Below, piece by piece: positions 2,620 to 34,022 of a DNA stretch of 64,000 nucleotides (positions are counted from its first letter, which is position 1; every line of letters begins with the position of its first letter). The stretch comes from a bacterium (lineage in GTDB: Bacteria > Patescibacteriota > Microgenomatia > Levybacterales > UBA12049), in contig JAJYDJ010000001.1 in the NCBI GenBank assembly GCA_021777565.1, positions 24,431 to 88,430 on the forward strand. Direction: 5' to 3'. The translations under genes were made by a program, and so were the position numbers. The notes beneath the pieces were generated by a model, which saw only the letters and a list, made by a program, of their open reading frames with translations, was not told the origin of the DNA and did no database searches.

Positions 2620-2868
2620 ATGTGGTATGTATATGCCATTTATAACAAAGAGAATAGTCAAATATATATTGGTCAAACATCGAATATTGATCGGCGGTTA
2701 AGTGAACATAATAGAAAGATTGGTAATCACTTTACTGCTAAATACAATGGAGATTGGAACCTAATATATGCGGAAGAGTGTTACTCAAGGCGAGATGCAC
2801 TTAAAAGAGAAAAAGAATTAAAAAGTTATCAGGGGAGAATGTTTATAAAAACATATATTCCCAAATGA
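2620..2868 (+). CDS. GIY-YIG nuclease superfamily protein (YhbQ/UPF0213-like, 82 aa)
   Basis: MWYVYAIYNKENSQIYIGQTSNIDRRLSEHN gives the GIY...YIG core with a conserved Arg and Glu. Size and pattern resemble E. coli YhbQ. The stop codon abuts the tRNA-Asn 5' end. Confidence 0.7.
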   Translation: MWYVYAIYNKENSQIYIGQTSNIDRRLSEHNRKIGNHFTAKYNGDWNLIYAEECYSRRDALKREKELKSYQGRMFIKTYIPK

Positions 2869-2943
2869 TCCGCGATAGCTCAACGGCAGAGCAGGAAGCT
2901 GTTAACTTCAAGGTTCCAGGTTCGAATCCTGGTCGCGGAGCCA
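2869..2943 (+). tRNA. tRNA-Asn (anticodon GTT), with encoded CCA
   Basis: Manual fold gives a 7-bp acceptor tccgcga/tcgcgga. D-stem is gctc/gagc. Anticodon loop is ctGTTaa with U33 and A37. T-arm is ccagg-ttcgaat-cctgg. Discriminator G is followed by CCA. Confidence 0.8.
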
Positions 2944-4389
2944 GAGTTGACGATCATTGCAATTGATGATCTCGTCAAAGGGTTTTAGCGCGTCATATCG
3001 GACTGTTCTACCTTCTAGTGTAAGGTTCGATAGTACGAACTTGAGTAACTGCCTTTTTTCTTCAACTTCTGAACTCATAAATAGATCGTATGCACGATTA
3101 GCTATATCCAGTATGTATTTCGTGGTGATAAAGTAGTTATCTTCTGCATCACTCAGAAGTGCCAAGCGTGACCCAATTTCTACCTTTTTATCACTCAGGT
3201 CTTGGAAGAATTTGTCATATTGATCCTCAGTAATACGCCCTTTTAGTCTATCCAAATACAGATTGTCCATCATTGTACTCGTTTCTTGTTGTTCTTTGGT
3301 CAGTTTCTTATATTGCTCATTGTGCAAGTCCATTTTTCCTTGGTGAACGCTATTAAGATTGTCTACAACCTGCCGTACTACATGTTCTGGTAGTTGTAGT
3401 CTCTTGAAGACATTTTCGAACTGCTCAGTAATAGAGGCCTCTGTAAGCCATTCTGCGCTATGTTTTCCGTTATATTGAGTACAATGATAGTAAACAATAC
3501 CTTTGTGCTTTTCTGGAGTCACTGCAAGCCCACATGTAGCGCATTTAATAAGGCCACGATAGGCATATGGTTTGCCAGCAAACTTATGCGGTATCTTATT
3601 GTATCCTGCCTTGATTCGTTGGACTTGGTCAAAAAGTTCTTGTGTAATAATCGGTTGGTATTTGTGATGATAGTATTTCCCATTCCACTTCATCATACCG
3701 TAATAAAATGTATCCTTGAGGATCTTATCTATAAATCCTTGTGACCACTTGATGCCATAATCACGATCAAGTTTCTCTCGTAAAGTCATCATGGAATATG
3801 CACCTGTGGCATAGAGCTCATATGCTTGTTTAACAATCTTTGATTGGAAGTCTTCAATCACAATCTCAGTTTTATCTTTTGCTATGGGAACTCTTTTATA
3901 GCCGTAAGATGGTCTGCTCGGATATGTACCCATTCTGAGCATTTGCTCTTGAGCTCGTTTTACATTGTCGCTGATAGCATCGGAGTAATATTTAGCGAGG
4001 CCTAGACTGATACTGAAGTTGAATTTCTCTACAGCTGATAACTGGCTATTGATTACTTGTCCGTCGGAAACAAAATGTAGTTCAATTTCATCCTTGAGTG
4101 CTTTGTCGTATAATAGTGAAACACGTTTATCAAAGACATTACGTGATAGTCTATCTACCTTATCAAAACACACTGCCACTTTCTCTTTTTGTTCAATCAC
4201 GTAATCGAGTATGTTATCAAAGTCACTACGCTGTGTTTTGTATGCACTTTCATCAAAACTGAATTCTTTGAGCATCTCAAATTCCTTATTTTGACCATAC
4301 TTTTTCATCCTAGCCATTTGAGCAGGAAGCGAGTTGTTGGCTTCTTTTTGTTCTTCTGTTGATACTCGTGCAATATATATGCTTTTCAT
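2908..4389 (-). CDS. Large serine recombinase (integrase). The 3' end overlaps tRNA-Asn antisense
   Basis: N-terminal resolvase motif YIARVSTEEQ carries the catalytic Ser. 493 aa with a Cys-rich zinc ribbon CATCG...YYHC and a coiled-coil region. The C-terminal tail is the antisense translation of the tRNA T-arm and acceptor. Confidence 0.8.
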   Translation of the reverse strand: MKSIYIARVSTEEQKEANNSLPAQMARMKKYGQNKEFEMLKEFSFDESAYKTQRSDFDNILDYVIEQKEKVAVCFDKVDRLSRNVFDKRVSLLYDKALKDEIELHFVSDGQVINSQLSAVEKFNFSISLGLAKYYSDAISDNVKRAQEQMLRMGTYPSRPSYGYKRVPIAKDKTEIVIEDFQSKIVKQAYELYATGAYSMMTLREKLDRDYGIKWSQGFIDKILKDTFYYGMMKWNGKYYHHKYQPIITQELFDQVQRIKAGYNKIPHKFAGKPYAYRGLIKCATCGLAVTPEKHKGIVYYHCTQYNGKHSAEWLTEASITEQFENVFKRLQLPEHVVRQVVDNLNSVHQGKMDLHNEQYKKLTKEQQETSTMMDNLYLDRLKGRITEDQYDKFFQDLSDKKVEIGSRLALLSDAEDNYFITTKYILDIANRAYDLFMSSEVEEKRQLLKFVLSNLTLEGRTVRYDALKPFDEIINCNDRQLWLRDQDSNLEP

Positions 4390-4466
4390 AGTGTTTGTTT
4401 ACCTACTTTATCCTGGACAGAATTTTTCCGTCCAGTTGTAAAATAGATAACTTCATCTCGTTATCA

Positions 4467-5144
4467 TTACTGAGTAAGGTGTTGGATAGCGTAATCTGCC
4501 TCTGCTTGCGTAAACTTTTCACCAGCATTAGATGTTAATTGGTCATGAATAGCTGATGGTGACATACTCATAGTATCTTGATAAGTCTTTGCTTTAGCTA
4601 GGGCGTTTGCATTCCAATCTGCTTTTACATTATCTACTGCATATTGTGCAGCGTCTGCCGAGAACTTTTCGCCATAGTCTGAGACTAACTGGTCATATAC
4701 GCCTCTTTTAGACATGTGCATGGTGTTAGCGTAAGTAGTAGCTTTGTTTAAAGCGGATGTATATTCCGCTGGCACACTTGGTTGTTTGTTTGCACTTGTT
4801 GCTGTTGGACTACTATTATTAGTTTTATCCTGTTGGACTTGTTGGCTATTTGTGTCAGGTGAGCTCATGGTAGGAGTACCTGAAGCACCAGCCATAGTAC
4901 CACCAATACCTAACAAGACAAAAAAGACTATTATCTTTAATACTCTTGATAGCTCAAAATTAGTCTTTGTTTTTAGGAACTTCACCGCTGGAGGGAAAAT
5001 AACCAAGCCTGCAAGAAGAGTAAATATACCCGTCGCTGGCTTACCAAATAGTTCACTAAGACCACCTATAACTAGTATCCCTCCTAAGCCCCAACCGAGA
5101 ATAAGTCCAAGCCCTATTTTATTTGTTTTCTTATCTGTTTCCAT
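4467..5144 (-). CDS. Ltp-family (phage superinfection-exclusion-like) membrane-anchored protein with two Ltp repeats
   Basis: N-terminal transmembrane helices and a Ser/Thr/Gln-rich linker. Two tandem repeats, ...VYDQLVSDYGEKFSADAAQYAVDNV... and ...IHDQLTSNAGEKFTQAEADYAIQHL..., match the Ltp repeat pattern QL..EGFS..EA.YAV. Confidence 0.5.
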   Translation of the reverse strand: METDKKTNKIGLGLILGWGLGGILVIGGLSELFGKPATGIFTLLAGLVIFPPAVKFLKTKTNFELSRVLKIIVFFVLLGIGGTMAGASGTPTMSSPDTNSQQVQQDKTNNSSPTATSANKQPSVPAEYTSALNKATTYANTMHMSKRGVYDQLVSDYGEKFSADAAQYAVDNVKADWNANALAKAKTYQDTMSMSPSAIHDQLTSNAGEKFTQAEADYAIQHLTQ

Positions 5145-5228
5145 TACATTTTCACCTCCTTTCGTATGTATTGTGACTTATATTCCGTAGACTAATAATC
5201 CACTTTTCTCTGATTATAGACTTGAAGC

Positions 5229-5447
5229 ATGAGCAAATCAACCCTATTAAGCAAAAAGTTTGGGGAAAGGACACGATCCTTGCGAAAACAATTGGGAATT
5301 TCCCAAGAAGAGCTAGGTTTTCAAACTGGGCTCGATAGAACCTATATCTCTGGTATCGAAAGAGGAGAAAGAAACCCCTCGTTAAAAAACATAGGCAAAC
5401 TTGCCAGAAAATTAAAAGTTTCATTGAAAGAATTGTTTTCATTTTAG
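5229..5447 (+). CDS. XRE-family helix-turn-helix transcriptional regulator (Cro/CI-like)
   Basis: LRKQLGISQEELGFQTGLDRTYISGIERGERNPSLKNIGKLARKLKVSLKELF is a classic HTH_3 pattern. Confidence 0.8.
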   Translation: MSKSTLLSKKFGERTRSLRKQLGISQEELGFQTGLDRTYISGIERGERNPSLKNIGKLARKLKVSLKELFSF

Positions 5448-6571
5448 TTAGGGAAATAGTAAGGACTTTTATAATTCGTGAGTTTCATTTGCTCGAATGT
5501 ATCTAAATAGTGTCTAACTAAAACAAAAGGACTCTTTGTTGTAGGGAGGTGAATATTATTTGTCTCTGTCATAAGTCTTTGCCAGCTTCTGTCGCGGGAT
5601 TTTCCAAACAGTTCTTTTAATTCTCGTAATGTATAGGTTTTTGTAGCTTCCATGAGCCCAACAGTTTGCAGTGCTTTAAGCATTCCCATCTTTGGATTGC
5701 TAACTATCAGATCGCTGAGTAATTGAGGAGTTGTTTTGTGCTTGTAATCAAGAATTTTGGGTATGCCTGCTTCTATTGTATCAAGGTAATAAAGGAGAAC
5801 TTTTTGTGAGATGTCCTTATTGAAGAGTTCCTTGAATGTCAGTCTTGGACTTAGACTGATAATACCAAAAAGTTGTTTCATTTTTTGTCTATTATTTAGG
5901 CGAACTTCCATACGAAGAACTTCAGGAATGGTATAACGTTTTTGATCAAAGAGATGGAGTTGTGTGGCATTGTCCTGTTCAATAGCTCGCTTCTCGCTAA
6001 TTCCTGCTGCCTGCAGATCTTTAATTTTGTCATAAAAAGCTATCTCGTATGAGTTGGCATGTATTTTATAACTGTATCCGTCATTTCTGTAATCAGTCTG
6101 GTTGATGTCTAGTGAACGTGTAACATAGGCCTCCTTTATTTTACTGATAAGATAATGAGGTGTGATGCCATCAGTAAGTGGAATGTTTTTAGAATAGTGA
6201 ATTGTGGAGACGGGCGCATTTATGAGTATTTCATAGAAAACTTTGACCCCCATTTCTTTCAGTCTACCTTGAAGGGCGAGTACAACTTTCTCAAAATTAT
6301 CCTCAGTGAGTTCATCAAAGTTGTTACCATAGAGTAGTTTCGGGGCAGAAAATTCGATAGATAGTGTACTTTCACTTCTGCCTGTGATATTAAATCGCTT
6401 TGTGAGTGTCAAACGTGGTTTGTATATCCCGTCCTTGAGTTCTGATTTAGTTGGATTCTGTACGAGCGTAAAATAGCCACGAGAAGCGTTTTGCCTTTCT
6501 CTTTGAAATAATGACAAATCAGTGAGCCAGAACATGCTGCTACTCAATGTGAGCTTTATTGTGTCTACCAT
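5444..6571 (-). CDS. Putative rolling-circle replication initiator (Rep_trans-like)
   Basis: 375 aa. LRMEVRLNNRQ and IAFYDKIKD resemble the WRVEIELKRD and IRIYNK blocks of pT181-type RepC (Rep_trans family). Weak, read by eye only. Confidence 0.35.
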   Translation of the reverse strand: MVDTIKLTLSSSMFWLTDLSLFQRERQNASRGYFTLVQNPTKSELKDGIYKPRLTLTKRFNITGRSESTLSIEFSAPKLLYGNNFDELTEDNFEKVVLALQGRLKEMGVKVFYEILINAPVSTIHYSKNIPLTDGITPHYLISKIKEAYVTRSLDINQTDYRNDGYSYKIHANSYEIAFYDKIKDLQAAGISEKRAIEQDNATQLHLFDQKRYTIPEVLRMEVRLNNRQKMKQLFGIISLSPRLTFKELFNKDISQKVLLYYLDTIEAGIPKILDYKHKTTPQLLSDLIVSNPKMGMLKALQTVGLMEATKTYTLRELKELFGKSRDRSWQRLMTETNNIHLPTTKSPFVLVRHYLDTFEQMKLTNYKSPYYFPN

Positions 6572-6839
6572 AGGGATTCATTACTTCTTCAAATTTCTCG
6601 ATAACTACTTTTTCAAGAATGGCAGCCGTCTCCTTTCTGATGGGATAAAATATATTGATATTCGCTATTCCTGTTTTTCTCGTTGGGTAGGTGAGTCTGT
6701 ATCCGCCTTCAGGACGTGTAAATATGCCTATAGAGCCAAGATAAAGACATCCATTGAACACAACGCTAGCAAACCCAACAAGGCCGTTGACTGGCTTTAT
6801 AGGAATAACTTGTACTTCGGTAATCATTACTTCTTGCAT
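6540..6839 (-). CDS. SpoVG-family protein
   Basis: ITEVQVIPIK...GLVGFASVVFNGCLYLGSIGIF..PEGGYRLTYPTR...NIFYPI follows the SpoVG pattern (V.V..I....LKAFASV.FD..FVV.D..V..G..GLFVAMPSR......DIAHPI). Confidence 0.55.
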   Translation of the reverse strand: MQEVMITEVQVIPIKPVNGLVGFASVVFNGCLYLGSIGIFTRPEGGYRLTYPTRKTGIANINIFYPIRKETAAILEKVVIEKFEEVMNPYGRHNKAHIE

Positions 6840-7161
6840 CTTTTGTTTCCTTTCGATAACTTAATACCTCTTTTGATGCATTCACTTAGTTGTTGTTTGT
6901 ACATTTCCGTGAGCAATAGCATCAGTTTTTCCTGAAATTGTTCCATTTTGCTTCCTCCTTTCTCGTTGGTCAATTTGTATAAGCAATTGAAAAAAATCTG
7001 TCAAACGTTTTAAACCATCTGCAGGTAGGACATGACCATCGGCAGGTAGTATTTGAGTTTGCTCAATTGGTTTTATTGCATTGCTTGTTTCCATTAAGCA
7101 AAGTTTATGAAAAGTGGATCGTACCTAATCGTAGAAGTTCCGTGTACGGAAAATTTTGAAG

Positions 7162-8862
7162 CTAAACTGACTTTTTATATATCGGATTTATCTTTGCGTG
7201 ATTATAGTCATACGACAGGAAGTCAGTAATGCCAGCTTTAGCTAAAGTAATTTCTATGCCACGACACGCCTCGTAATAAATGTTCTTTGTGTCCATTGTC
7301 TCATCAGTCATAGCGCCTTCTAATTCATCAACTGCTTCAGCATAATAAATGCCCTTTGGTTTCTTTATAAGTAATTTGAGCAGTGCAAGTTTCCTTGTAT
7401 CCTTTTTGAATTTTGCCATTTTGCCATTTATATCCAGCGTTGTAGTTTCATCATTGAAGGTGAATGGAATATGGTTCTTAATCTCATTTTCTTTAATTTC
7501 AGGTTCTTCTGCTAAGCTCATTGTTTCAAACTGCGCTATCTCATTGATGAGTTGCCTGTGTGCCTTGTGGAGGTATGTAATATAGTTGTCATAAACAAAT
7601 ACTTGCATTTGGTCATAGGTTGTATCCTTCAAAATGCCCTTAATTTCTTCTATAAGATGGGTCAGGTTCATTCCCTCAAACCATCGTTGGTTCTTGACGA
7701 GCTCTGAGCGCATTCCTTCATAGTCATTAAACATTTCATAAAACAGGCGTAAGTATTCCCAGGCGTTCCAGCCTCGTGTTTCTCTGAGACGTTGCATTTT
7801 TTCTAACTCAGCCTTATATGCATCATTTATTTCTAATGCGCGCCATTTGGTTGCCCTTTTCCCGTCATGTTGTTCTACCCCAAGGAGATCAAGGATAGTT
7901 TGGTTTATTGGATCTTGCCTAAAAGCATTCCAGCTTAATGTTTCGATATGTCCAAAAATACTCAACCATCCTTCTGGGTCTCCCATAACTTGTATGGTAC
8001 CTGCTCTGATTGAGAGGATTTCTCTTATATCATCTTTTTCGGAGGGATCATCTGATTGATACGTTTCTAGTTTAGGTATAAGGGCTTCTATGTATTCAAT
8101 AAGCTCGTTTTTGTATTGCTCGGCTGTTTCATAGTCAGCCTTTTTATGTACATAAAATACATCTGACAGTTGAGCTAACGTGTCGGTTGTAAGAATGTAG
8201 TTCACATATTCATAAATTGCTAAGAAGAATGGCTTGGTAGGCTTTGCGGTAAGTGCCTGTTGGTATATTGCCTCTAGATTTTGTATCCAAAGGCCTGTAT
8301 TCACTTTTTTTGTTGATTTACCAGATGCGTTAGTATTAGTGCTATGTGTGTAGGGTATATGTGCGTCTTGAGACGTATTGGAGTGTTCCTTATTATCATC
8401 TGAGTCATTATGCTTTGTGTCAGACCCTTTCTCTTCTGTTAGTTTGCTTTGTGACTGAATAGTATTTCCTGGGTGCAAATCTGATATGTCTCGAATAAGT
8501 GGTACGCTATATCTCGTGGGTACTTTGCCTGTAAATTCTTGATATTCTGGTTCACTTTGTGTTTTCAGAAAGTAATCGCTAAAAGAGGGAAGTAGGTCAA
8601 TGTGATAACAGCCATCGTCAGCGTGCTCATACGGATCATGTTCATCAAGCCATGAAGTTTCCCTTTTGGGTGCTTTGATGACCTGTAGAATCAGTTCATC
8701 GTGTTCCAGCTTGGCAAATAGCTGGCGTAATTCAACAGTACTGTATTTACGATTGAGATCATTTGTTGGATTTATAATCAAAAGTTCATTAGAAGGAGCG
8801 ATTGCTCTTGCATCGTTAAGAGCATCTAATAGAAAGTAGAGTTTTTGTTTGCCACTCATCAT
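7162..8862 (-). CDS. Hypothetical protein (566 aa) in island 1
   Basis: Long uninterrupted ORF in an AT-rich region. No recognisable motif and no Walker A. Confidence 0.5.
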   Translation of the reverse strand: MMSGKQKLYFLLDALNDARAIAPSNELLIINPTNDLNRKYSTVELRQLFAKLEHDELILQVIKAPKRETSWLDEHDPYEHADDGCYHIDLLPSFSDYFLKTQSEPEYQEFTGKVPTRYSVPLIRDISDLHPGNTIQSQSKLTEEKGSDTKHNDSDDNKEHSNTSQDAHIPYTHSTNTNASGKSTKKVNTGLWIQNLEAIYQQALTAKPTKPFFLAIYEYVNYILTTDTLAQLSDVFYVHKKADYETAEQYKNELIEYIEALIPKLETYQSDDPSEKDDIREILSIRAGTIQVMGDPEGWLSIFGHIETLSWNAFRQDPINQTILDLLGVEQHDGKRATKWRALEINDAYKAELEKMQRLRETRGWNAWEYLRLFYEMFNDYEGMRSELVKNQRWFEGMNLTHLIEEIKGILKDTTYDQMQVFVYDNYITYLHKAHRQLINEIAQFETMSLAEEPEIKENEIKNHIPFTFNDETTTLDINGKMAKFKKDTRKLALLKLLIKKPKGIYYAEAVDELEGAMTDETMDTKNIYYEACRGIEITLAKAGITDFLSYDYNHAKINPIYKKSV

Positions 8863-8978
8863 ACGTCATTACTTCTTCTTATGTATTTACTTATCAGGCA
8901 TATCTTATCAGGAGATAGGAGAATAGTAAAATATCAAATATGGTAGGAATACTTGTAACACAAGGTTTATCTGTAAAT

Positions 8979-9536
8979 CTAACGCCCCTGCGTTTGTATG
9001 TCTTGTATAATCAATTTTCTGATTTCTTCCGTTTTACTTGTATTATTTTGCTTCGCCTTTTCTTTGAGGAATTGATCTAATTTTTTTTCAAGTACAAGGT
9101 TAAACCTCGCGAATTGATCATTTTCTTCTGCCCACTTGAAGAAGTCCTTAATAATTTGGTCAATTGTGTCTACAGAATAGGTTTTTCTTACCAAATGTTT
9201 CATTTGCTCACGTGAAATAAACGATCCAATATTGGAGTTTGTATCTTTAGGGGTTAATAACAAAACAGGGATGTTTTCCTCAAACGCTATGGACATTTGT
9301 TGGCCAATAGAGGAAATATCAGATGTACATTCAAGTATTACGGCATCAGCAGACTTGATTGCTTTTAGGGTTCTTTCATACATGTCTGATAACCCTAATT
9401 CTTTACCTAAACTCTCTTCTTTAATCCAATCTCTGAGGATGATGCCTTGATTTTTTATTATTGCTTGCCTTATTTTTTTATAAGACTCAGGATTTTCTTT
9501 AAATGCAGGCAATGATCCACCAAAGTGCACTTTCAT
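8979..9536 (-). CDS. Nucleoside 2-deoxyribosyltransferase-like (LOG/SLOG-superfamily Rossmann) protein
   Basis: 185 aa. GSLPAF...NQGIIL..W...S.G.E.G..DMYER.L..I..ADAVILECTSD.SSIGQ.M.IA.E..IPVLLL matches the fold pattern of nucleoside 2-deoxyribosyltransferase-like (Nuc_deoxyri_tr2/3-type) proteins. Confidence 0.45.
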   Translation of the reverse strand: MKVHFGGSLPAFKENPESYKKIRQAIIKNQGIILRDWIKEESLGKELGLSDMYERTLKAIKSADAVILECTSDISSIGQQMSIAFEENIPVLLLTPKDTNSNIGSFISREQMKHLVRKTYSVDTIDQIIKDFFKWAEENDQFARFNLVLEKKLDQFLKEKAKQNNTSKTEEIRKLIIQDIQTQGR

Positions 9537-9642
9537 TAAAGTAATTATACTACAAAGTACAATAGTACAGTTATTCTTCTTGTTGCATTTCAGAGAAACA
9601 TGATGTACATTCGGTGTACATTATCTGTTTAGGCTATTAAAG

Positions 9643-11103
9643 ATGAAGAAAGTGAATATTATAGAAATAGGAATCGGCCCACATGCCAAACGGGTATACG
9701 TTCCAGCGATCATAAAGTTATCCCAAACTTATAACATTGAGCTATCTTTAGCTATTGATCTTAAGGAGAAAGAAGAGGATGTAAAGTCATACTTTAGCTC
9801 AGTAAGTATTGCTCCTCAACTGCTATTCGTTGATCCATTTGATGGTGACCTTCCACAAGATCTTAAAAAGGCCCTAAATGACTTTGTAAAAGTAAATCAA
9901 ATTCAGGCTGTCATTATCTCAACAGAGCCACGCTCACATTATGTGTATGCGAAATGGGCATTAGATCAAGGTCTCAACATCTTAATGGACAAGCCTATCT
10001 CAACAAGAGAAAATGTTGTCACAGATATTGATGCAGCTCTAGGCATACGTGAGGAGTATAACGATCTTTTGAAAAAATATGTAAGTTTACAAAAAAGGAA
10101 GCAGACAGCATTTACTATAAATGCTCAACGTAGATACCATGATGGTTTTGAACTGGTCTCTAGTTTACTTAAAGAAATTGCCTCTAAAACGAATTGTCCT
10201 GTTACTTCAATACAGTCCATGCACTGTGATGGGCAATGGAGATTACCTTCAGAAATTGTCACTCAAAAATACCATCCCTATGGAGAAGGATATGGCAAGG
10301 CTTCCCATAGTGGGTATCATATCTTTGATATTGCTTATACCTTCTATAAGTCCTCGTTAATCACTGGTAAGTTGGCTGACTCAGCAGAAGTCTATTCGTC
10401 CTTTATTCAACCAAATGGCTTTTTGTTTCAATTGAGCGAAGCCGATTATGCACGATATTTTGGAGAAGAATATAAGAAAGTAAAACTGTACTCTGATAAA
10501 CAATTAAAGAAAAAATACCAAGGATTTGGCGAGATGGATGCGTTTTCCAATATAAGATTTCTAAAACAAGGTGAAAATGTCTGTAATATTTCAATCAACC
10601 TTCTTCACAATGGATTTGCTAGAAGGACATGGATAAAGCCAGGTAGCGATTTATATAAAGGAAACGGTAGAGTGAAGCATGAATATCATAATATTCAGCA
10701 AGGACCATTCCAAAATATTCAAATTCACTCCTATCAATCAAACGACAAACATGAGACAAGCACAGAACAAGACTACGAAATCGGGGGCAATAATCACTTT
10801 GATATTTATGTATTTAGAAATTTTGAAATGACAGGAGATGATAAACCATTAAAGATAATAAGGATGAGTGATTTATCAAAGAAGAATAATTATGATAAAA
10901 GTAAACTTGTGGTTGAGTTAACTAAAGAATCTGTAGTAAAAGAGTTTTTTGATTTTATTTACGGGAAGATTGGAAAGGACAAGTTAAGATCAAACATAGA
11001 CGATCATGAAATCCCTGTTAACATAATGAGTTCTGTATACAGCTCGCATGTTAACCAACAAGCAAAGAAAGACCCTGTCGCAAGATTTAAACTAAATATA
11101 TGA
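9643..11103 (+). CDS. Gfo/Idh/MocA-family NAD(P)-dependent oxidoreductase (486 aa, extended C-terminus)
   Basis: The N-terminal Rossmann domain KVNIIEIGIGPHAKRVYVPAI...AVIISTEPRSHYVYAKWALDQGLNILMDKP is typical of the family. Confidence 0.6.
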   Translation: MKKVNIIEIGIGPHAKRVYVPAIIKLSQTYNIELSLAIDLKEKEEDVKSYFSSVSIAPQLLFVDPFDGDLPQDLKKALNDFVKVNQIQAVIISTEPRSHYVYAKWALDQGLNILMDKPISTRENVVTDIDAALGIREEYNDLLKKYVSLQKRKQTAFTINAQRRYHDGFELVSSLLKEIASKTNCPVTSIQSMHCDGQWRLPSEIVTQKYHPYGEGYGKASHSGYHIFDIAYTFYKSSLITGKLADSAEVYSSFIQPNGFLFQLSEADYARYFGEEYKKVKLYSDKQLKKKYQGFGEMDAFSNIRFLKQGENVCNISINLLHNGFARRTWIKPGSDLYKGNGRVKHEYHNIQQGPFQNIQIHSYQSNDKHETSTEQDYEIGGNNHFDIYVFRNFEMTGDDKPLKIIRMSDLSKKNNYDKSKLVVELTKESVVKEFFDFIYGKIGKDKLRSNIDDHEIPVNIMSSVYSSHVNQQAKKDPVARFKLNI

Positions 11104-12458
11104 AAAGTGAACAGAACACACTTCAAGCACTGATTGATGGCCTTCACGATGGGGGTGTACAAATTGTCACAAATTTCCCTGGGTTTAAGTCTCACGAGCT
11201 ATTTAGTGGGCTAGGAGGAAAGACTACATCTATCAATGAAAAGGCTGCTTATGAAATAGCATGGGGAGCAAGTCTTGCAGGCAAAAGATCTGTTGTTACG
11301 TTTAAAAATGTAGGATTAGACGATGCAGCAGATCCATTCCTAAATTCAATGTTATTGAAAATAAACGCTGGACTGGTTGTTGTAGTATTTGATGATGTTG
11401 AGGTAACAGGCTCACAATCTCGCCAAGACTCAAGACACTACTTTGATTTCTTTGGAGGATTATGGTTTGAGCCATACTCAACAGAGTCTGCTTATGAAAT
11501 TGCACTTAATAGCTTTAACTACTCAGAAAAGCTACAAGTACCAGTTGTTATCCGACTTACAAATGAGGTTTTGTCAAAAAGTGGCTCTTATAAGAGATCT
11601 AAAATAAGGACTGCAACCAAGTCATTAAAGCATGATAAGATACGATTTGTTGTTCATCCAGTAAATGCAAAGTTACAGAATAAGGAATTAGAAAACAAGA
11701 ACCTAGAAATAAGAAAATTTGTCGAGAATTTATACAGCAAAGCTACTGCCTCAGGAGTAATTGCGTTTGGTGATTGTGAGAGAGAGATAAACGCACTTCC
11801 AATTTCTAGAGAAAATGTTTTTCAAGTATATACCTTGCCTACTCCCAATAATACTCTTAAAAAGAACTTTGCTAAATCGAAAGAAATTAAAGTATTTGAA
11901 CAAGGTACGTCATACGGAGCAGAGAAAGTGAGTGCTATCTTTTCTTCAAAAGAAGTTGTTAGTAACAGTGGCGACTTTGTCGATCACTCAAAAGGACATA
12001 TTATTACGAAAAACTATGAAACAATGTTTCAAGCATTAAAAAATACCAAGCCACAGCTCGTTGTAGGAGATTTAGGAGAATACACTATGGACAATCTTCA
12101 TTCTATTGATGCTTGTCTTTGTTTTGGATCAGCTATTAGCGTAAGTATTGGTGCTAGTCTCGCGGGGGTCAAAGATATATTCTGTATTATTGGTGATGCG
12201 GCATTTTTGCATTCAGGTAAAAACGTAATAGCAGAAGCGCTTGAGCGTAACTTAAAGCTAAATATTATCGTTATTTGTAATGGGGGCTCGCAAGGCACAG
12301 GAGGACAAAAGATACCTGGGGATCTAAAAACACAAAATAAGAGTATAATATCTTTCACTGAGATCTATGATGATTTAAATGTTAAAAAGTTTGGGGTGTT
12401 ATTTGAGCAAATGAAAAAAAGTAAACAGATGGCTATTTTGTATCTGGTAAAGAAATAA
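11100..12458 (+). CDS. Thiamine-pyrophosphate-dependent enzyme (sulfopyruvate/phosphonopyruvate decarboxylase-like or IorA-like, Pyr then PP domain order)
   Basis: N-terminal pyrimidine-binding domain. C-terminal TPP motif GDLGEYTMDNL...GDAAFLHSG...NLKLNIIVICNGG (GDG...N). Start overlaps the upstream oxidoreductase stop (ATGA). Confidence 0.55.
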   Translation: MKSEQNTLQALIDGLHDGGVQIVTNFPGFKSHELFSGLGGKTTSINEKAAYEIAWGASLAGKRSVVTFKNVGLDDAADPFLNSMLLKINAGLVVVVFDDVEVTGSQSRQDSRHYFDFFGGLWFEPYSTESAYEIALNSFNYSEKLQVPVVIRLTNEVLSKSGSYKRSKIRTATKSLKHDKIRFVVHPVNAKLQNKELENKNLEIRKFVENLYSKATASGVIAFGDCEREINALPISRENVFQVYTLPTPNNTLKKNFAKSKEIKVFEQGTSYGAEKVSAIFSSKEVVSNSGDFVDHSKGHIITKNYETMFQALKNTKPQLVVGDLGEYTMDNLHSIDACLCFGSAISVSIGASLAGVKDIFCIIGDAAFLHSGKNVIAEALERNLKLNIIVICNGGSQGTGGQKIPGDLKTQNKSIISFTEIYDDLNVKKFGVLFEQMKKSKQMAILYLVKK

Positions 12459-12459
12459 T

Positions 12460-13080
12460 ATGGAACAAGTAAGATATATACATTTTGAAGGAATGGATCT
12501 CGCAGGGAAAACTACTGCAACACAGGGCTTCATAGCTGCTGATGGAGGAACGTGGGAAATAAGAAGAAACAGCATAGCTACTGATAATCCAATATATCTT
12601 CTTGCAGATTCGTTGAGAAGAGCTGATGCTTATGATGCTGAAACGCTAGGTAATTTGTTTGTGGCTGCGCTAATGGCTGACATACGTAGTTTTGTACCAC
12701 CTACAGCTGATACGATACAAGACTCAACGATTCTTTTGCGATCACTTGCTTATCATTCAGTAAGAGGAACACCTCGAATCCCTCAAGTGCTTCAGGATAT
12801 GGTTCCTGAGCATCCACAATTCACGGCTTCGTTTCTATTTACAGCAAGTATTGATAGAAGGCGTGAAAGATTACAGCAAAGGATGCAAAGAGCACCAGAA
12901 GAAGTAGCGCCTGAAGATTTAATGGTCTTAGATGCACCAGAAAAGTTTTTGGCAATGGAAGCGCGATTGATAGACTTGTCTACAGGGATATTTCATTCAG
13001 TGGTTATAGATACAACATCGTTAACGCCAGAAATGGTTGTTGAGAGTATCCAGACAAATATGCCGTCTAGACGTGAATAG
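12460..13080 (+). CDS. Thymidylate-kinase-like P-loop nucleotide kinase
   Basis: IHFEGMDLAGKTT is the Tmk-type P-loop (FEG.DG.GKTT). An Arg-rich lid IDRRRERLQQR is present. 206 aa. Confidence 0.55.
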   Translation: MEQVRYIHFEGMDLAGKTTATQGFIAADGGTWEIRRNSIATDNPIYLLADSLRRADAYDAETLGNLFVAALMADIRSFVPPTADTIQDSTILLRSLAYHSVRGTPRIPQVLQDMVPEHPQFTASFLFTASIDRRRERLQQRMQRAPEEVAPEDLMVLDAPEKFLAMEARLIDLSTGIFHSVVIDTTSLTPEMVVESIQTNMPSRRE

Positions 13081-13102
13081 AAAATAACTATTGACCACCT
13101 TT

Positions 13103-13717
13103 TTAACTCTCAGTAACAAGATCATTAACCTTTTCAATGACAACGTCTTCATAGACTGGTTCCTTTGTCTCTAGATCTCTAAAACTGTGATCAGCACCAT
13201 CAATGTTAATGTATGTGATTTTTTTGGTAGCCAAACCTTCAAGATCGCTTTTAACTTTTTCTATGTTGCCAAACTTGTCGTTACTGCCTTGAATGACTAC
13301 AATATTTCCAGTAAATTCCTTTAGATCTACACTTCCGAGCACGTATCCTAAGATGATTACAGAATACTTTTTCTGTTCATGTATGGGTAGTTTTTTTGAA
13401 AAATAACTCGCAACAATACCACCGAGTGACTTACCTATTAGTCGAATGTGGCGATATTCTTTAATTGAAGCGTATTCAATAACTCTCTTGAGAACCTCTA
13501 ACTCTTCTTGAAGCTCTGGCCCAGAGGATTGCTCCTCGCCTCGGTCTAAATATGGGAAGTTAAATGCAATAACGCTATGCGCATTATCTTGTGAAGCTTT
13601 GAATAGTTTTTGTATAAAAGATGACTCAATCCCTTTTGACCCGCCGTGTAGGAGCACATCAAGAGTATCAGAATCTGTATTGTATGAAAAATAAAAGTTT
13701 ATACCTTGCATCAGCAA
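13103..13717 (-). CDS. Alpha/beta-fold hydrolase
   Basis: Nucleophile elbow GKSLGG (GxSxG). 204 aa. An HGG motif lies near the N-terminus. Confidence 0.6.
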   Translation of the reverse strand: MLMQGINFYFSYNTDSDTLDVLLHGGSKGIESSFIQKLFKASQDNAHSVIAFNFPYLDRGEEQSSGPELQEELEVLKRVIEYASIKEYRHIRLIGKSLGGIVASYFSKKLPIHEQKKYSVIILGYVLGSVDLKEFTGNIVVIQGSNDKFGNIEKVKSDLEGLATKKITYINIDGADHSFRDLETKEPVYEDVVIEKVNDLVTES

Positions 13718-13941
13718 TATAATATCTAAGTTTGTCTATTTGTGCAATCTCCAATACGAATTGTTATCATCCAATGATGGTTATTGTATGCTATTTATAG
13801 AGAATGGCAAGTTAAAGGTATCATAGAGAGTTTTTATGTTTCCTAGAGGAACATCAAGCTGTATCTCTTTTTTCCTGAACATGTCTACCAAGGGGAGCAA
13901 AGTAAAACTTACACGAACTAATTACTTAAGGTACAGTTACA

Positions 13942-14358
13942 ATGGATTGGACTATTCTCAAAGGCTTTTTGTCTGGACTCCCCGTTGGAGGACTGATTGT
14001 CTATTTCTCACATGGTTGGATAGATGACTACTTTAGAAAAAACACCGAGGTCCGCACTGATAAAAGAAAATTGGCAAAAGAAATCCTTTCTACTATAGCT
14101 GAAGCTGAGTCAAGCAATTATCAAAAAACTGCAAGGAATAGAGAGCAGATAAAAAATCTTGCTATTCAAGCAGGACCATATAACTCTAAAATAGACGATT
14201 TAGTCCGACGCTATGAATTTACATGGTGGCTTGCTTCTGAAATCTTCTCAAGAATACCTGAATTACAAGAGAATCTATTTTTCTATAGGGAGTTGGAAGA
14301 ACGTGCAAGAGATCAGTCTCTTCAAGTAAAAAACATCGTGAATAAGTGGTTAAAGTAA
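13942..14358 (+). CDS. Hypothetical protein with an N-terminal transmembrane helix
   Basis: 138-aa ORF with a hydrophobic N-terminus. No motif recognised. Confidence 0.35.
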   Translation: MDWTILKGFLSGLPVGGLIVYFSHGWIDDYFRKNTEVRTDKRKLAKEILSTIAEAESSNYQKTARNREQIKNLAIQAGPYNSKIDDLVRRYEFTWWLASEIFSRIPELQENLFFYRELEERARDQSLQVKNIVNKWLK

Positions 14359-14431
14359 TTTTCTGAGTAAAATTTTCTCAATGATTTCTCTTTACGTGTA
14401 CTACCCCGCTTTTGGGCAGGACTTGTAAAAT

Positions 14432-29602: not shown

Positions 29603-31390
29603 TTAGCACAGGACAGGTATGGTACAATGAGGCCATCTGTCCTCGTAGCTCAGCTGGATAGAGCAGGCCCGTCCTAAGGGCAAGATCGGAGGTTCGAATC
29701 CTCTCGAGGACGCAGAAGACACTTTTTTATCTACAATTGTATAAATTGAAGCTAATTTTGGTGTTCCAATCTTTAATTCTTCATAAGTTGGTTGTTTATC
29801 AAATAACAACCCAAACATTGCGCCATTTTGGAGTGGATCTGTGCCTCCAAGTATCAATTCGTCTAGGTGTTCCATATAATATTTGAGGTTATTAATGAGT
29901 ACCTGTATATTTATTTGTTGCTCATCCTTTTTATCTCTCAGCACTGTTGCTTGCACTCTCTGTAACTCTAGCTTGTCTATATCTTCTTCCAAAGCCCTGA
30001 TAGCTACTTCGCTAGTAAGCATTTTTATCTTCCCTGCTAGCATAAGTTGTTGTTCTTTGATTGAGGCTACTTGTTGGTCTAGGGAGATAGTATCTTTCAT
30101 GATGCTTGCTTTTCTCTTTTCCCATTCAGACAAAAGTATTTCTTCCATTCTTTTTCTATATTTGTCTGTAAAATGCACATTTCCTACAAATGACGTTACT
30201 AGATCATGAACATCTTTCAGCTTAACACCAAAGCGTTTATGTCCTCTATTGCAATGATATGCTGGAAAGCGCTCTCCGGACTTGCCTGGAGTAGCACTGC
30301 CATAAAATTCTTTATTACATTTTGGGCAAAGGATTTGTTGCTTAAATGGGTATAGTGGATTAAGTTTATTCTTTTTCAGCTTCCATTCTTCGATTTGCCC
30401 TTTTATAACGAGTACTTCATTCGGATGGTCTTGTTGTTCAATAATTTTTACTTTGCCCCTATTGGCCTTATTAAATACCTCTATCGAGACTAATCCGCCG
30501 CCATACATTTTAATTGCTTTCCCGCCCGTCCACTTTTCTGTATTGATCCCCGCATAAATTGGATTTCTGATATACTCTTGCAATTGTTTTACTGCTAATG
30601 GTTTACCACCCGTATGCCCAATAATCTTTGTTCTGTCGTTTTTGTCGTACTTCCGTTTTATTCTGGATAAAAAACCCCTTGCATTAATTTCATAAACAAT
30701 TTCTCTATCTGATAGATTACCCTGTTCTCGTAGCTCAAACATGCGAATAAACCAAGAAGATTCTAGCGGATGAGGTTTCATTACAGATCGTAAACCGTGC
30801 GGAGTTTCTATCTTTACATTTATAAATCCCATTTGTGGCTGTCTTGTTTTATATCCTAATCTTGTATAATTAATTTCTGCACCAATCATTCGAGTTAAAA
30901 TATCTCGTACTTCTGCTTTAGCTCGTTCTGCCTCAAGTAACTCAGTTATCCAAGATGGGCTGTATTCACTCCACTTATATTGTGTGCCAAGATATGCCAA
31001 TGTATTGACTGTCTGAGAACTGATAATTCCATATGTATCGATAAGTGTAACTCCTGTCTTTGCAAATTCAGCTTTAAGATACCCATAAGTTGCACTACCT
31101 CCTCTTGTAACTCTATCTATGCTTTTAATAAAAGCAAATTTTATCTTGTTATTTTGATTTTTGCAGTATTCTATCGCTTTTATAAGAGGTTGTAGATCAA
31201 TGTCTCCACTTGCTGATTCAGTAAAATCAAATTGTTCTTTTATTACAATCTTGCAGGAATGCATTTGTTCAACACGACTTATTGCTTGGCCTACTTGCTT
31301 TTCTTGATCTTCAAGGCTATCACCGGTAAGTCCCTGTTTTTGACTTGAAACCCTACCTATGCTTATTCCGTAAAAAACTTGTAACTCCAT
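29603..31390 (-). CDS. Large serine recombinase (second copy). The ORF runs antisense through the whole of tRNA-Arg
   Basis: N-terminal resolvase motif ISIGRVSSQKQ. 595 aa with zinc ribbon CPKCN...YHCNRGH and a coiled coil. The C-terminal 36 codons are the antisense of tRNA-Arg. Confidence 0.75.
   Translation of the reverse strand: MELQVFYGISIGRVSSQKQGLTGDSLEDQEKQVGQAISRVEQMHSCKIVIKEQFDFTESASGDIDLQPLIKAIEYCKNQNNKIKFAFIKSIDRVTRGGSATYGYLKAEFAKTGVTLIDTYGIISSQTVNTLAYLGTQYKWSEYSPSWITELLEAERAKAEVRDILTRMIGAEINYTRLGYKTRQPQMGFINVKIETPHGLRSVMKPHPLESSWFIRMFELREQGNLSDREIVYEINARGFLSRIKRKYDKNDRTKIIGHTGGKPLAVKQLQEYIRNPIYAGINTEKWTGGKAIKMYGGGLVSIEVFNKANRGKVKIIEQQDHPNEVLVIKGQIEEWKLKKNKLNPLYPFKQQILCPKCNKEFYGSATPGKSGERFPAYHCNRGHKRFGVKLKDVHDLVTSFVGNVHFTDKYRKRMEEILLSEWEKRKASIMKDTISLDQQVASIKEQQLMLAGKIKMLTSEVAIRALEEDIDKLELQRVQATVLRDKKDEQQINIQVLINNLKYYMEHLDELILGGTDPLQNGAMFGLLFDKQPTYEELKIGTPKLASIYTIVDKKVSSASSRGFEPPILPLGRACSIQLSYEDRWPHCTIPVLC
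29639..29712 (+). tRNA. tRNA-Arg (anticodon CCT)
   Basis: Acceptor gtcctcg/cgaggac, D-stem gctc/gagc, anticodon loop gtCCTaa (U33, A37) and T-arm ggagg-ttcgaat-cctct. No encoded CCA. Confidence 0.7.
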
Positions 31391-31787
31391 AGCTTTATGG
31401 TAACACTATCATTTGGTAAATCTCAACTTTCCATTCTTTTGGTCGTCTAGAACACGATCTATGATAAGGTTAGCAAGTATACGCATGCGCTCTTCAATTT
31501 CTAATTCTTTTTTATTTTCTTCTAATCCTATCGTGGCGTTTTCAGTTGCAGTAGGCTTATGTATCATAAAAATGCCTCCCTCGTTTGCAGCTAGGGCGGG
31601 AGACCTAGCGCAAACCAGAAAGGCATTGACTTCTCCCGCTATTAACGAAAAAGCGCTTACAAAGCAACACGAAATTCGTGCTACCGTGTAAGCGCAGTCC
31701 TGCTAATCAGGGTTAGCCTCCTCGAGGTAACTTCTTCACCAATACTGTGTCAACAATTTTTGTACACTGTCAAGACCTGTTTTGAGC

Positions 31788-32126
31788 CTATTTCTGTGAT
31801 ATCTCAACCATTCCCTTAAACCTCTGTTTGATATATTTCAGCTTCAAACATGTCCTACAACCAATCAATCCTACTGCCGGATGTCTATACAAAACTCCTT
31901 TTCTTTTTCCACACAGAGAACACAAAAACCAAAACCTTTCACCGTGAAATAATGTCTTTGAAGTAGCGAGCTGTACAGATATTCCTAGAGCTTCAATCTG
32001 AGCTTCTACAAGCCTCCTGCGAAGCATTTTGTTTGCTTTTCTTACTAATTCATCAACAGAGATTCTTTGACAATTTTCCGCTACGAAGAAGTTTCCTAAA
32101 TCATATGGAGATAATGAATTACCCAT
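31788..32126 (-). CDS. Small zinc-ribbon hypothetical protein
   Basis: 112 aa carrying CSLCGKRKG....GCRTC (CxxC...CxxC). Confidence 0.4.
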   Translation of the reverse strand: MGNSLSPYDLGNFFVAENCQRISVDELVRKANKMLRRRLVEAQIEALGISVQLATSKTLFHGERFWFLCSLCGKRKGVLYRHPAVGLIGCRTCLKLKYIKQRFKGMVEISQK

Positions 32127-32676
32127 GTTGCTCCTGTATTACTTGGTTTTGACCAACAATAGCTGTTTCTGTTTTGATATTCACTTGTAGCTGAGGCTGT
32201 TTCATTATTTTAAGCGCTTGGAGAGATGAAAGGTATTGTCGTATTGCTCTATCAAGATCTTTACTTAATAACCCAAAAAGGATTAGATCCGCATTATTCA
32301 TATTGCTATCGTAGATGTAACGATTAAGTCTGCGTTCTAGGTCTAGCATGCGGATATAGGAGAGAGTCGCTAGTTCAACAGTTGCCTTCTCACTTACTGT
32401 AGTGCAGTTATACTCTTTTTGCAGGTCTCTTAACATTTGGATACCAAATGTTTTATACGGCTCGGATACGTTAGTTGCCAGTAGGAAGCCACTCTCAAAC
32501 TCAGATAAAGAAATTGCCTGAAAGAGATCTCCTTTTGCTGTAATGTCTCTCTTGTCTTGCTTTTTTTCAAGCTCTTTCTTTGCATTTTTTATAACTGTAT
32601 TTGGATCACAGGGCAGACTAATCCCAAGTTCTCTCAATACATCTTTAGATTCATTTTGTTTAACAATGCTATCCAT
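32119..32676 (-). CDS. Hypothetical protein in island 2
   Basis: 185-aa ORF whose stop overlaps the start of the downstream gene, suggesting translational coupling. Confidence 0.4.
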   Translation of the reverse strand: MDSIVKQNESKDVLRELGISLPCDPNTVIKNAKKELEKKQDKRDITAKGDLFQAISLSEFESGFLLATNVSEPYKTFGIQMLRDLQKEYNCTTVSEKATVELATLSYIRMLDLERRLNRYIYDSNMNNADLILFGLLSKDLDRAIRQYLSSLQALKIMKQPQLQVNIKTETAIVGQNQVIQEQHG

Positions 32677-32719
32677 GCTCTAGGTATAGCAAACTTTTTT
32701 GTCACAAGGCGCAAGGGAT

Positions 32720-32926
32720 TTATTCAAGGAGATCTTTTGGAGATACTTTTAAGGCTTTTGCTAGCTTTTGTATTGTTTTCAAGGTTGGATTTCTTTTTCC
32801 GGCTTCAATAGCAATTATAGATTTTGGGTCTACCTTTGTAAGTTCTGCTAGCTTTTCTTGCGAAAACTTTCTCCCTTTACGTAAATTTCGCACATTCTCG
32901 CCGAGTTTTTGATAAGTATTTGTCAT
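32720..32926 (-). CDS. XRE-family HTH regulator
   Basis: LRKGRKFSQEKLAELTKVDPKSIIAIEAGKRNPTLKTIQKLAKALKV is an HTH_3 pattern. It is paralogous to the island 1 regulator. Confidence 0.75.
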   Translation of the reverse strand: MTNTYQKLGENVRNLRKGRKFSQEKLAELTKVDPKSIIAIEAGKRNPTLKTIQKLAKALKVSPKDLLE

Positions 32927-33032
32927 GGAATTGACAGGATTATGGAATATATGTCAGAATCTGAACAGGAAATATATTCCAGTTTTAGCTTTGGTCTCAA
33001 ACCTAAATCGCAAAATAAATAACTAAAAATCT

Positions 33033-33224
33033 ATGAAAACAATTTTTATTAAGCCATTGAGCATTCTTATTGCGCTTACCTGCCTCGTAGTAATCACATA
33101 TTTTGGCATCATGATTTATAAAGAGCTTACGCCTCCTTCTTATAACGACCAGAAAATGCAATGTTTAGAACTGGGGAGTAATTTGCGATATAGACAATGT
33201 ATGCAAATGATAAATCAAAAATAA
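33033..33224 (+). CDS. Small membrane protein
   Basis: 63 aa with a single transmembrane helix. First gene of a plus-strand run in island 2. Confidence 0.3.
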   Translation: MKTIFIKPLSILIALTCLVVITYFGIMIYKELTPPSYNDQKMQCLELGSNLRYRQCMQMINQK

Positions 33225-33683: not shown

Positions 33684-33715
33684 AACCTTCTAATAAGATA
33701 TAATCTTAAATAGAG

Positions 33716-34021: not shown

Positions 34022-34022
34022 A

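Follow-up and report, generated by a model that had tools for sequence, protein, structure and literature searches.

A probable plasmid-like integrative element at a tRNA-Asn gene of a Patescibacteria genome and the predicted splitting of its recombinase gene

The 64,000-nt stretch of DNA considered here (the window; contig JAJYDJ010000001.1) comes from a Levybacteria-like host. Positions 2942–13898 are interpreted, with good confidence, as an integrated plasmid-like integrative element of a large family of Patescibacteria (candidate phyla radiation, CPR), which probably replicates as a circle with the aid of a protein of the gpII fold. The initial annotation of this DNA had proposed an integrated mobile element with a serine recombinase at tRNA-Asn, which is borne out by ARAGORN, Pfam and related loci. 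Comparison of these loci indicates that integration occurs via a GAGC core at the tRNA end, and that attP is located within the recombinase gene, a C-terminal extension of ~38 amino acids being lost on integration. That integration cuts the element's own recombinase gene is unexpected and was overlooked in the initial annotation. All the evidence is computational, and attB and attP of the window copy are reconstructions based on relatives.

Ends of the element and attachment sites

The features on which the delimitation is based are the following (L-numbers here and below are labels of the related loci or contigs that were compared).

2869–2943 (+): tRNA-Asn(gtt), the integration target (ARAGORN; cloverleaf fold)
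2937–2941: attL core GGAGC (junctions of identical elements in different flanks)
2942–13898: integrated element, 10,957 bp (junction comparison, far-end arm, composition)
2908–4389 (-): large serine recombinase of 493 aa, the truncated form of the integrated copy (Pfam, PHROG)
13781–13897 (-): separated 3' part of the recombinase gene, 38 codons plus stop, (W)LPLVDMFRKKEIQLDVPLGNIKTLYDTFNLPFSINSIQ and stop, in frame with 2942–4389 only once circularised
13856–13898 (+): attR, the conserved far-end (P) arm, which ends in the core GGAGC at 13894–13898 (motif match)

The ends were fixed by comparison with about 90 related loci. A 5,922-bp member of the family is 100% identical in five contigs (L010–L014), and the flanks of L010 on either side have no blastn similarity in the other four loci. 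Identity of this member ends ...CAACTCTGGCTCC beside the tRNA, where the junction is CAACTCTGGCTCC directly followed by the tRNA, and at the far end the flank is directly followed by GCTCCGCCTAGTAGAC, identity beginning at GCTCCGCCTAGTAGACGCATTCTG. Since identity stops at these points, GCTCC delimits the element; it is the tRNA 3' end GGAGC(CA) in reverse complement. The common core is reduced to GAGC because the tRNA of L010 reads GCGAGC, and identical elements in differing flanks confine the crossover to GAGC at window positions 2938–2941. The attL site consists of the last bases of tRNA-Asn, with the core GGAGC and an element-derived terminal CA. The attL and attR sites have only GGAGC in common (GAGC in L010), and long direct repeats are missing. 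The window contains neither repeats (direct or inverted) nor a displaced 3' half of the tRNA by which attR could have been recognised; a displaced half is not to be expected when the crossover falls on the last bases of the tRNA.

A motif made from three far-end arms was scanned on both strands of the window and has one match only, at 13856–13898 (+), with 21 of 27 positions matching, a score reached by one of 300 shuffles. The matched arm is identical at 35 of 43 positions to that of L116 and coincides exactly with the compositional boundary. The window copy has both of its ends intact; the flank beyond the attR core reads on as AAAGTAAAAC. The right boundary had earlier been placed at about 14.4 kb and described as not marked by an obvious repeat. 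It lies about 500 bp nearer, at 13898, and is marked by the 5-bp core and the family-conserved arm, which leaves the open reading frame (ORF) at 13942–14358 outside the element. In 1-kb windows the GC content is 0.34–0.39 over about 2.5–15 kb, as opposed to 0.41–0.49 on either side. The delimited element has 37.1% GC and the remaining window 43.1%, and no other 11-kb stretch of the window has a lower value. The reported drop in GC is thus real, and the value of about 35% given for it was slightly low but fair.

The reconstructed attP is GAACATCAAGCTGTATCTCTTTTTTCCTGAACATGTCTACCAAGGGGAGCCAGAGTTGACGATCATTGCAATTGATGATCTCG and the reconstructed attB is GGTTCGAATCCTGGTCGCGGAGCAAAGTAAAACTTACACGAACTAATTAC. 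As attB runs ...TCGCGGAGC directly followed by AAAGT, the native tRNA-Asn gene probably has no encoded CCA, which would be supplied by the element. It had been suggested that attL and attR be defined by comparison with relatives. The ends were indeed obtained from related loci, but the closest species representatives offer no empty site: GIY-YIG/tRNA-Asn is absent there from the position seen in the window, and therefore no attB is readable from close relatives.

A 9-bp core, CAAGGTTCC (2909–2917), was considered and rejected. It was derived from two Logan contigs from different samples that stop inside the tRNA on opposite sides, L003 (its end corresponding to window position 2917) and L007 (2909), while junctions of identical elements lead to GAGC. 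The two breaks are best explained by k-mers common to the tRNA-Asn genes of co-occurring species and not by a recombination site.

The recombinase gene across the attachment site

The recombinase has the domain order Resolvase, Recombinase, Zn_ribbon_recom and matches the PHROG integrase family phrog_95 at 4e-62. Its catalytic domain (PF00239, 6e-17, residues 6–154) contains the motif IARVSTEEQ with the serine at position 10, and PF07508 (5.8e-12) and PF13408 (6.9e-6) are both matched over cut-off. The protein is 68–74% identical to the recombinases of related elements, and no solved structure is detectable by sequence. The AlphaFold model of the reconstituted 521-aa protein, made without an alignment, has a pLDDT (predicted local distance difference test) of 39.7 and is unusable. 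In large serine integrases a coiled-coil motif inserted in the zinc-ribbon domain governs directionality, and the long helix that the model contains at residues 335–382 is of the same very low confidence. The 3' end of the gene is antisense to the tRNA, as first described, through its final 12 codons, and the protein tail RDQDSNLEP is antisense tRNA sequence.

The integrated gene stops ...RQLWLRDQDSNLEP after 493 aa, while the circular form would encode a recombinase of 521 aa with the end ...RQLWLPLVDMFRKKEIQLDVPLGNIKTLYDTFNLPFSINSIQ; this difference follows from the location of attP within the 3' end of the gene. Across the core, the far-end arm continues in the recombinase frame as (W)LPLVDxFRNREIEFGFSLQNIQTVFETFxL... 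and then a stop, and the Trp codon TGG at the join is the antisense of the tRNA CCA. The extension peptide is kept in about 35 distinct versions of 19–52 codons, mostly 35–41. Of 29 sequences, 26 keep this frame open over 30 codons or more, compared with 0 of 29 for each of the other two frames, and the stops cluster at codons 35–41. The entropy at codon positions 1, 2 and 3 is 1.05, 0.65 and 1.28, respectively, and Leu is written by five different codons, a pattern that argues for conservation of the extension at the protein level. Uninterrupted long recombinase ORFs are found in nature at the tandem junction of L012 (521 aa) and in the L178 circle (540 aa). Taken together, these comparisons point to a recombinase gene that spans attP and is shortened by integration.

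As the sequence comparison shows, the recombinase joins attP to the last bases of a tRNA gene, where the core GAGC falls on the acceptor end, the discriminator base and the first C of CCA. In the steps proposed to follow, after excision the 375-aa Rep-like protein of the element would nick the circle and start replication, with the SpoVG-like protein acting as its DNA-binding partner, and the full-length recombinase would then integrate the circle. The truncated enzyme would have altered or reduced activity, so that the gene split may contribute to the control of directionality. It is tentatively suggested, with rather less than even confidence, that the full-length recombinase of the circle and the truncated one of the integrated copy constitute an integration-state switch, with directionality or stability differing between the isoforms. 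In one such scheme, integration would be carried out by the full-length form, the truncated form being either silent or able to excise only when a partner of the excisionase-type HTH_17 (helix-turn-helix) family is present. The window copy has no HTH_17 gene, and its excision may be poor. If real, a switch of this kind would give the archaeal 'suicidal' integrases their first counterpart in bacteria, built on a serine recombinase, and would represent a natural design principle for the control of large serine integrases. These enzymes are key genome-engineering tools whose direction control is actively studied, and the family provides novel enzymes together with a new type of target site (the invariant tRNA 3' end) and, in a C-terminus that changes with integration state, a control mechanism open to testing.

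In the archaeal elements SSV1, pTN3 and pT26-2, 'suicidal' tyrosine integrases have attP inside the integrase gene, so that integration into a tRNA gene splits it, and related copies in the population could supply an intact integrase (PMC8371274). The element described here similarly has attP inside the integrase frame and a gene cut on integration. However, the archaeal tyrosine recombinases are split into large N- and C-terminal parts, while in this bacterial serine recombinase just the last 35–40 residues are detached and the Pfam-recognised catalytic and DNA-binding domains stay whole. Self-cutting integrases have been reviewed as exclusive to archaea (PMC8371274), and the family described here has the same gene layout in bacteria, in another class of recombinase.

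A similar arrangement is known from the mycobacteriophages BPs, Brujita and others, in which attP lies in the 3' end of a gene and integration into a tRNA gene swaps the C-terminal tail as a switch; this integration-dependent immunity needs no separate directionality factor (PMC9262239). In these phages integration cuts the repressor gene, the tail being an ssrA-like degradation tag, and the phages have a tyrosine integrase and a core of ~35 bp. Here it is the recombinase gene that is cut, and the ~38-aa extension is a conserved peptide in which no tag is evident. Mycobacteriophages with serine integrases do not use tRNA genes (PMC9262239). In contrast, targeting of tRNA genes is the rule for the elements described here and reaches recombinases of only 28% identity in human-gut contigs.

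The phage large serine integrases phiC31, Bxb1, A118, TP901-1 and SPbeta SprA share with the window recombinase the domain order, a very short core and the lack of long repeats, at an identity of just 24–27%. The other phage large serine integrases of the comparison set also use targets that are not tRNA genes, and we know of no phage large serine integrase with attP inside its own reading frame.

Family, replication module and rival explanations

The backbone of the window element consists of the large serine recombinase and of the following genes.

5229–5447 (+): XRE-family HTH regulator, 72 aa (NCBIfam and PADLOC HTH matches; the gene called in L002 matches Pfam HTH_3)
5444–6571 (-): 375-aa Rep-like protein, the family hallmark, a candidate replication initiator (nicking enzyme) (homolog family, fold matches)
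6540–6839 (-): SpoVG-like protein, 99 aa (PF04026 4.8e-9; overlaps the start of the 375-aa gene)
6882–7094 (-): 70-aa backbone protein, N-terminal 44 aa conserved (tblastn matches at the same position in 25 loci)
7162–8862 (-): 566-aa backbone protein, N- and C-terminal parts conserved, middle variable (homologs in L101 and L010)

Homologs were examined in 91 loci. The module of the relatives has the order 347–566-aa protein, small protein, SpoVG-like protein, Rep-like protein, HTH_17 protein (excisionase-type), methyltransferase or other cargo, and serine recombinase. It ends in a serine recombinase of ~490 aa, the 3' end of which is overlapped antisense by a tRNA gene. Across the family the elements are 6–11 kb in size and carry no virion genes. 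The tRNA overlaps the recombinase gene antisense in every locus that has both the Rep-like and the recombinase gene and an ARAGORN-called tRNA at the recombinase 3' end, and the targets are tRNA-Asn (~19 loci), Asp (6), Glu (3), His (1) and Gln (1). In four loci without an ARAGORN tRNA, group I introns (RF00028, 58–90 bits, Rfam) adjoin a tRNA-like 3' fragment (L013 6205–6395, L014 9453–9768, L109 16834–17061 and L136 14175–14376). These loci are read as intron-split target tRNAs, which were probably missed by ARAGORN because of the adjoining introns.

One member appears to have been assembled in its circular form. The 7,698-bp contig L178 has a 123-bp terminal overlap, which yields a 7,575-bp circle in which the P' arm, core and P arm are contiguous; in addition to the backbone, it encodes N6_N4_Mtase and MvaI/BcnI, which make up a type II restriction-modification pair. 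Within long chromosomal contigs (L011, L012, L101, L102, L136, L172 and L173) there are tandem arrays, where a P' arm meets a P arm. The arrays sometimes join different element types, one of them with a type I restriction system, and the upstream recombinase regains its full-length frame in them via the extension segment of its neighbour.

The regulator slot, occupied in most relatives by an HTH_17 excisionase-like gene, is filled in the window element by the XRE gene, which agrees with the Cro/CI-like HTH protein first noted, and no HTH_17 homolog is found in the element. An 82% identical copy of the XRE gene lies at the same position in L136. A 96-aa ORF (5152–5442, -) wholly antisense to the XRE gene has an odd Cys/Phe-rich composition and no family match, is called as a gene in no assembly and is probably spurious. 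The 566-aa protein is 67% identical to a 553-aa protein of L101, and its C-terminus matches a 347-aa protein of L010; it has no family match in Pfam, PHROGs, NCBIfam or PADLOC.

The 375-aa protein has more than 1,665 homologs with 54–63% identity, the few named ones being from Levybacteria, Roizmanbacteria and other Patescibacteria, and a profile search with it yielded 1,261 clusters at 50% identity. It has no sequence match in Pfam, NCBIfam, PHROG, PADLOC or PDB. The initial annotation regarded it as a Rep_trans-like rolling-circle initiator, of which the rolling-circle-type idea is retained through fold matches to inovirus proteins, while membership of the Rep_trans family is not. Pfam searches with 28 family members gave no Rep_trans match at E <= 10 for any of them, hhalign against pT181 RepC gave a probability of 0.2% and no signal, and Foldseek found nothing in the PDB for the model, and hence no fold match of the RepD/RepDE type. 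A loose motif resemblance to pT181 RepC (hYDK, RhEhRL) is seen, and three of the 28 members weakly match phrog_702, 'replication protein'.

The AF2 (AlphaFold) model of this protein (pLDDT 78.8, predicted template-modelling score 0.81) has a mixed β-sheet N-terminal part and a helical C-terminal part. Foldseek searches against BFVD returned six matches at E <= 0.001, which span 6e-10 to 2e-5 with probability 1.0 and template-modelling (TM) scores of 0.37–0.57. One of the matches is named 'Replication-associated protein G2P [Inoviridae sp.]', and the unnamed A0A345... entries presumably stem from the survey of inoviruses by Roux et al. The size of ~375 aa and the architecture of a β-sheet N-terminal and a helical C-terminal part are shared with inovirus gpII (G2P) and with Rep_trans proteins (pT181 RepC/RepD). 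The Foldseek matches to inovirus replication proteins are significant, in contrast to Rep_trans, pT181 RepC and PDB chains, to which no sequence similarity is detectable, and the protein is a candidate initiator by fold. With moderate confidence it is considered a candidate initiator of the gpII fold.

The SpoVG-like protein, correctly recognised at the outset, matches PF04026 with 36.7 bits (gathering cut-off 29.6) over 80 of 82 profile positions. It is below the NCBIfam equivalog cut-off and is therefore regarded as SpoVG-like and not as a housekeeping SpoVG. Its gene adjoins the Rep-like gene in 64 of the 91 loci. The overlap of the two genes and the recurrence of the pair suggest that the two proteins are functional partners and point to an uncharacterised replication module of a SpoVG-like and a gpII-fold protein.

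The initial annotation left the choice between a prophage remnant and an integrative plasmid, of which the second is favoured by the 6–11-kb relatives and the 7.6-kb attP circle, and the first is opposed by the lack of virion genes and of relatives in IMG/VR. As a remnant of a temperate phage at tRNA-Asn that lost its structural and lysis genes, the element would account for the Ltp protein and the XRE regulator, both typical of temperate-phage lysogeny modules, for the PHROGs labels of integrase and superinfection exclusion, and for the distant (24–29%) relatives of the recombinase that are annotated as phage serine integrases. However, complete members of the family measure just 6–11 kb with both att arms intact, one of them being the circle, and the window copy likewise has both of its ends. 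No capsid, tail, terminase or lysis families are found in the window element by Pfam or PHROGs, and none of these genes lies beside the module in about 90 loci. The Rep-like family has no relatives in 2.9 M IMG/VR contigs, and tblastn found none in phage (50,697 records) and plasmid collections. A phage remnant is thus considered very unlikely.

It is likewise improbable that the element is an inovirus-like (filamentous-phage-like) prophage or a helper-packaged satellite, in which the gpII-fold protein would replicate single-stranded DNA for export or packaging. Viral proteins, among them G2P of Inoviridae sp., give the 375-aa protein its best fold matches, and some relatives, such as L178, carry small membrane proteins. 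Inoviruses are small, often integrate by serine or tyrosine recombinases and are reported in CPR hosts (PMC6813254). The Zot/pI-type morphogenesis ATPase, which is the marker used by Roux et al. for inovirus detection (PMC6813254), is nevertheless not matched by any ORF of the window element in Pfam. Nor is a Zot domain listed for the called genes of the minimal 5.9-kb member in their precomputed Pfam annotation, its 347-aa protein matching nothing, and the family is not captured in IMG/VR. We know of no helper virus for such a satellite.

The 375-aa protein could instead be a relaxase of the MobT/Rep_trans type that nicks an oriT, with a conjugation machine provided in trans, which would make the element an integrative mobilizable one, like serine-integrase elements of Firmicutes. 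The gene combination in the window fits the architecture of streptococcal elements, in which a serine integrase is accompanied by a Rep_trans-like nicking enzyme, an XRE regulator and cargo, and the loose RepC motifs hYDK and RhEhRL are in line with it. The NCBIfam MobT model, in contrast, has no match in the 375-aa protein, in agreement with the negative Pfam Rep_trans and hhalign RepC searches. Coupling protein and type IV secretion genes are absent from the window element by Pfam and from beside the module in nine pre-annotated loci. To our knowledge, conjugation systems have not been found in such reduced genomes, and mobilization of this type is considered very improbable.

The interpretation as a plasmid-like integrative element of Patescibacteria has points against it too. 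The Rep assignment is based on Foldseek matches with TM scores of 0.37–0.57 to mostly unnamed viral proteins, the Pfam, NCBIfam, hhalign (against RepC) and PDB sequence and Foldseek searches being all negative for Rep, and neither an origin nor a nick site was identified for the element. A circular assembly may also come from a tandem array, and such arrays exist. No excised circle of the window element was found, as it is integrated in all 5–6 assemblies carrying its proteins, and no empty site either, an exact attB search in JGI metagenomes having returned nothing. The conservation of the far-end arm could partly stem from binding by the recombinase and not from coding.

Among known plasmid-like elements, the integrative and conjugative elements of actinomycetes (AICEs), such as pSAM2, are small and tRNA-integrated with int/xis/rep modules and form a circle, with rolling-circle replication in pSAM2; the case of an AICE with a serine integrase sits in thiC and not in a tRNA gene (PMC2440964). 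The family described here resembles AICEs in its integration in tRNA genes, modular organization, few accessory genes and a member assembled as an attP circle. AICEs have tyrosine integrases, an FtsK-like transfer gene, Kor/Pra regulators and, in the case of RepSA, an initiator of the pC194 family. Unlike them, the window element has a large serine recombinase, a SpoVG-like partner and Patescibacteria hosts, and it has no transfer gene, no FtsK/Tra domain being found in it by Pfam. Its Rep-like protein is of a different family that has no Pfam, NCBIfam or PHROG match.

Mobile elements of CPR bacteria are poorly known, and the window provides a fully delimited example of a very common family. 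Its spread is evident from more than 1,200 clusters of the hallmark protein and from identical copies in unrelated genomes, and it moves restriction-modification, exclusion and metabolic genes between hosts. No description of the family was found in a non-exhaustive search of the literature on CPR mobile elements and on serine-recombinase tRNA elements of Patescibacteria.

Two unannotated 'Bacteriophage sp.' contigs of 6–9 kb from human faeces, L186 (MT837677.1, ORF 835–2403) and L187 (MT836653.1, 7583–9156), encode serine recombinases 28% identical to that of the window. The L186 ORF overlaps a tRNA-Leu antisense, and the aligned region of L187 ends ~30 nt before an antisense tRNA-Glu. Targeting of tRNA ends by this recombinase clade therefore seems, judging by these alignments, to reach beyond Patescibacteria.

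A gene for an ~82-aa GIY-YIG protein ends from a few to ~50 bases before the target tRNA in the window (2620–2868) and in L172, L124, L015 and L128. Several unrelated hosts show this adjacency, with tRNA-Asn as well as tRNA-Glu as the target. The GIY-YIG gene of L134/L135 and L144/L145 is not next to the tRNA but lies upstream of the gene for the Rep-like protein.

Cargo genes and flanking regions

Cargo is located in two slots, which in the window element are occupied by the Ltp exclusion-type protein and by a five-gene metabolic cassette.

4467–5144 (-): two-repeat Ltp protein, membrane-anchored, candidate superinfection-exclusion cargo (PF07553 9e-48; phrog_4980 2e-59)
8979–9536 (-): 185-aa cargo protein (weak matches only: nucleoside-deoxyribosyltransferase-like N-terminus, Arc/RHH-like C-terminus)
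9643–13080 (+): three-gene cargo operon (Pfam/NCBIfam)
9643–11103 (+): GFO/IDH/MocA-like oxidoreductase, gene 1 of the operon
11100–12458 (+): thiamine pyrophosphate (TPP) enzyme like the α subunit of indolepyruvate oxidoreductase, gene 2
12460–13080 (+): dTMP-kinase-like P-loop protein, gene 3
13103–13717 (-): α/β hydrolase (Abhydrolase_11), the last cargo gene (PF20408 1.3e-20)

The Ltp protein had been described as a tandem-repeat lipoprotein. The two PF07553 repeats are present, but its N-terminal part, as read from the sequence, contains no cysteine and no lipobox and starts with hydrophobic helices, and the protein is therefore considered membrane-anchored and not a lipoprotein. The defence-system library gave no match in the element beyond the XRE regulator.

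The block of GFO-like, TPP-enzyme, kinase-like and Abhydrolase_11 genes (9643–13717) recurs in L182 (1–4672), and the position of the 185-aa protein in the cassette also resembles L182. The GFO and TPP pair is found in a housekeeping context in L183–L185, beside SHMT, alanine racemase and ProRS, and the TPP enzyme of these loci bears the source name 'Nitrospirota bacterium'. The five-gene cassette is read as captured metabolic cargo. In relatives, the cargo consists of methyltransferases, a type II restriction-modification system or a peptide deformylase. Promoter and terminator scans gave numbers of sites not above those in shuffles.

The assignment of the host as Levybacteria-like is based on an M16 peptidase that is 50–60% identical to those of Levybacteria metagenome-assembled genomes. 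In Levybacteria relatives, the genes directly after NDK are homologous to those at ~24.9 and 28 kb of the window, and tRNA-Pro, tRNA-Arg and homologs of the genes at 42–46 kb come next. The window regions 2.6–24.8 kb and 29.7–42.3 kb, absent from this gene order, are accordingly variable. Besides GIY-YIG, tRNA-Asn and the element, the relatives lack the block of host-like GC at 13.9–24.8 kb, whose genes are of the detoxification type (AKR, GNAT, YgjV, DUF7790, glyoxalase, MFS and VKOR).

A second island of low GC (0.34–0.39) occupies 29603–36000 and starts at tRNA-Arg(cct) (29639–29713), which is crossed antisense by a 595-aa ORF (29603–31390, -). This ORF has no Pfam match at 1e-3 but shows the serine-recombinase hallmarks GRVSSQKQ, DRVTRGG and CPKC...YHC, and its N-terminus aligns to the recombinase of the tRNA-Asn element (E 0.005); it is followed by an FtsK_gamma protein and DUF6804. 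The island at 29.6–36 kb has the appearance of a further, distinct element with a serine recombinase, again located at a tRNA 3' end.

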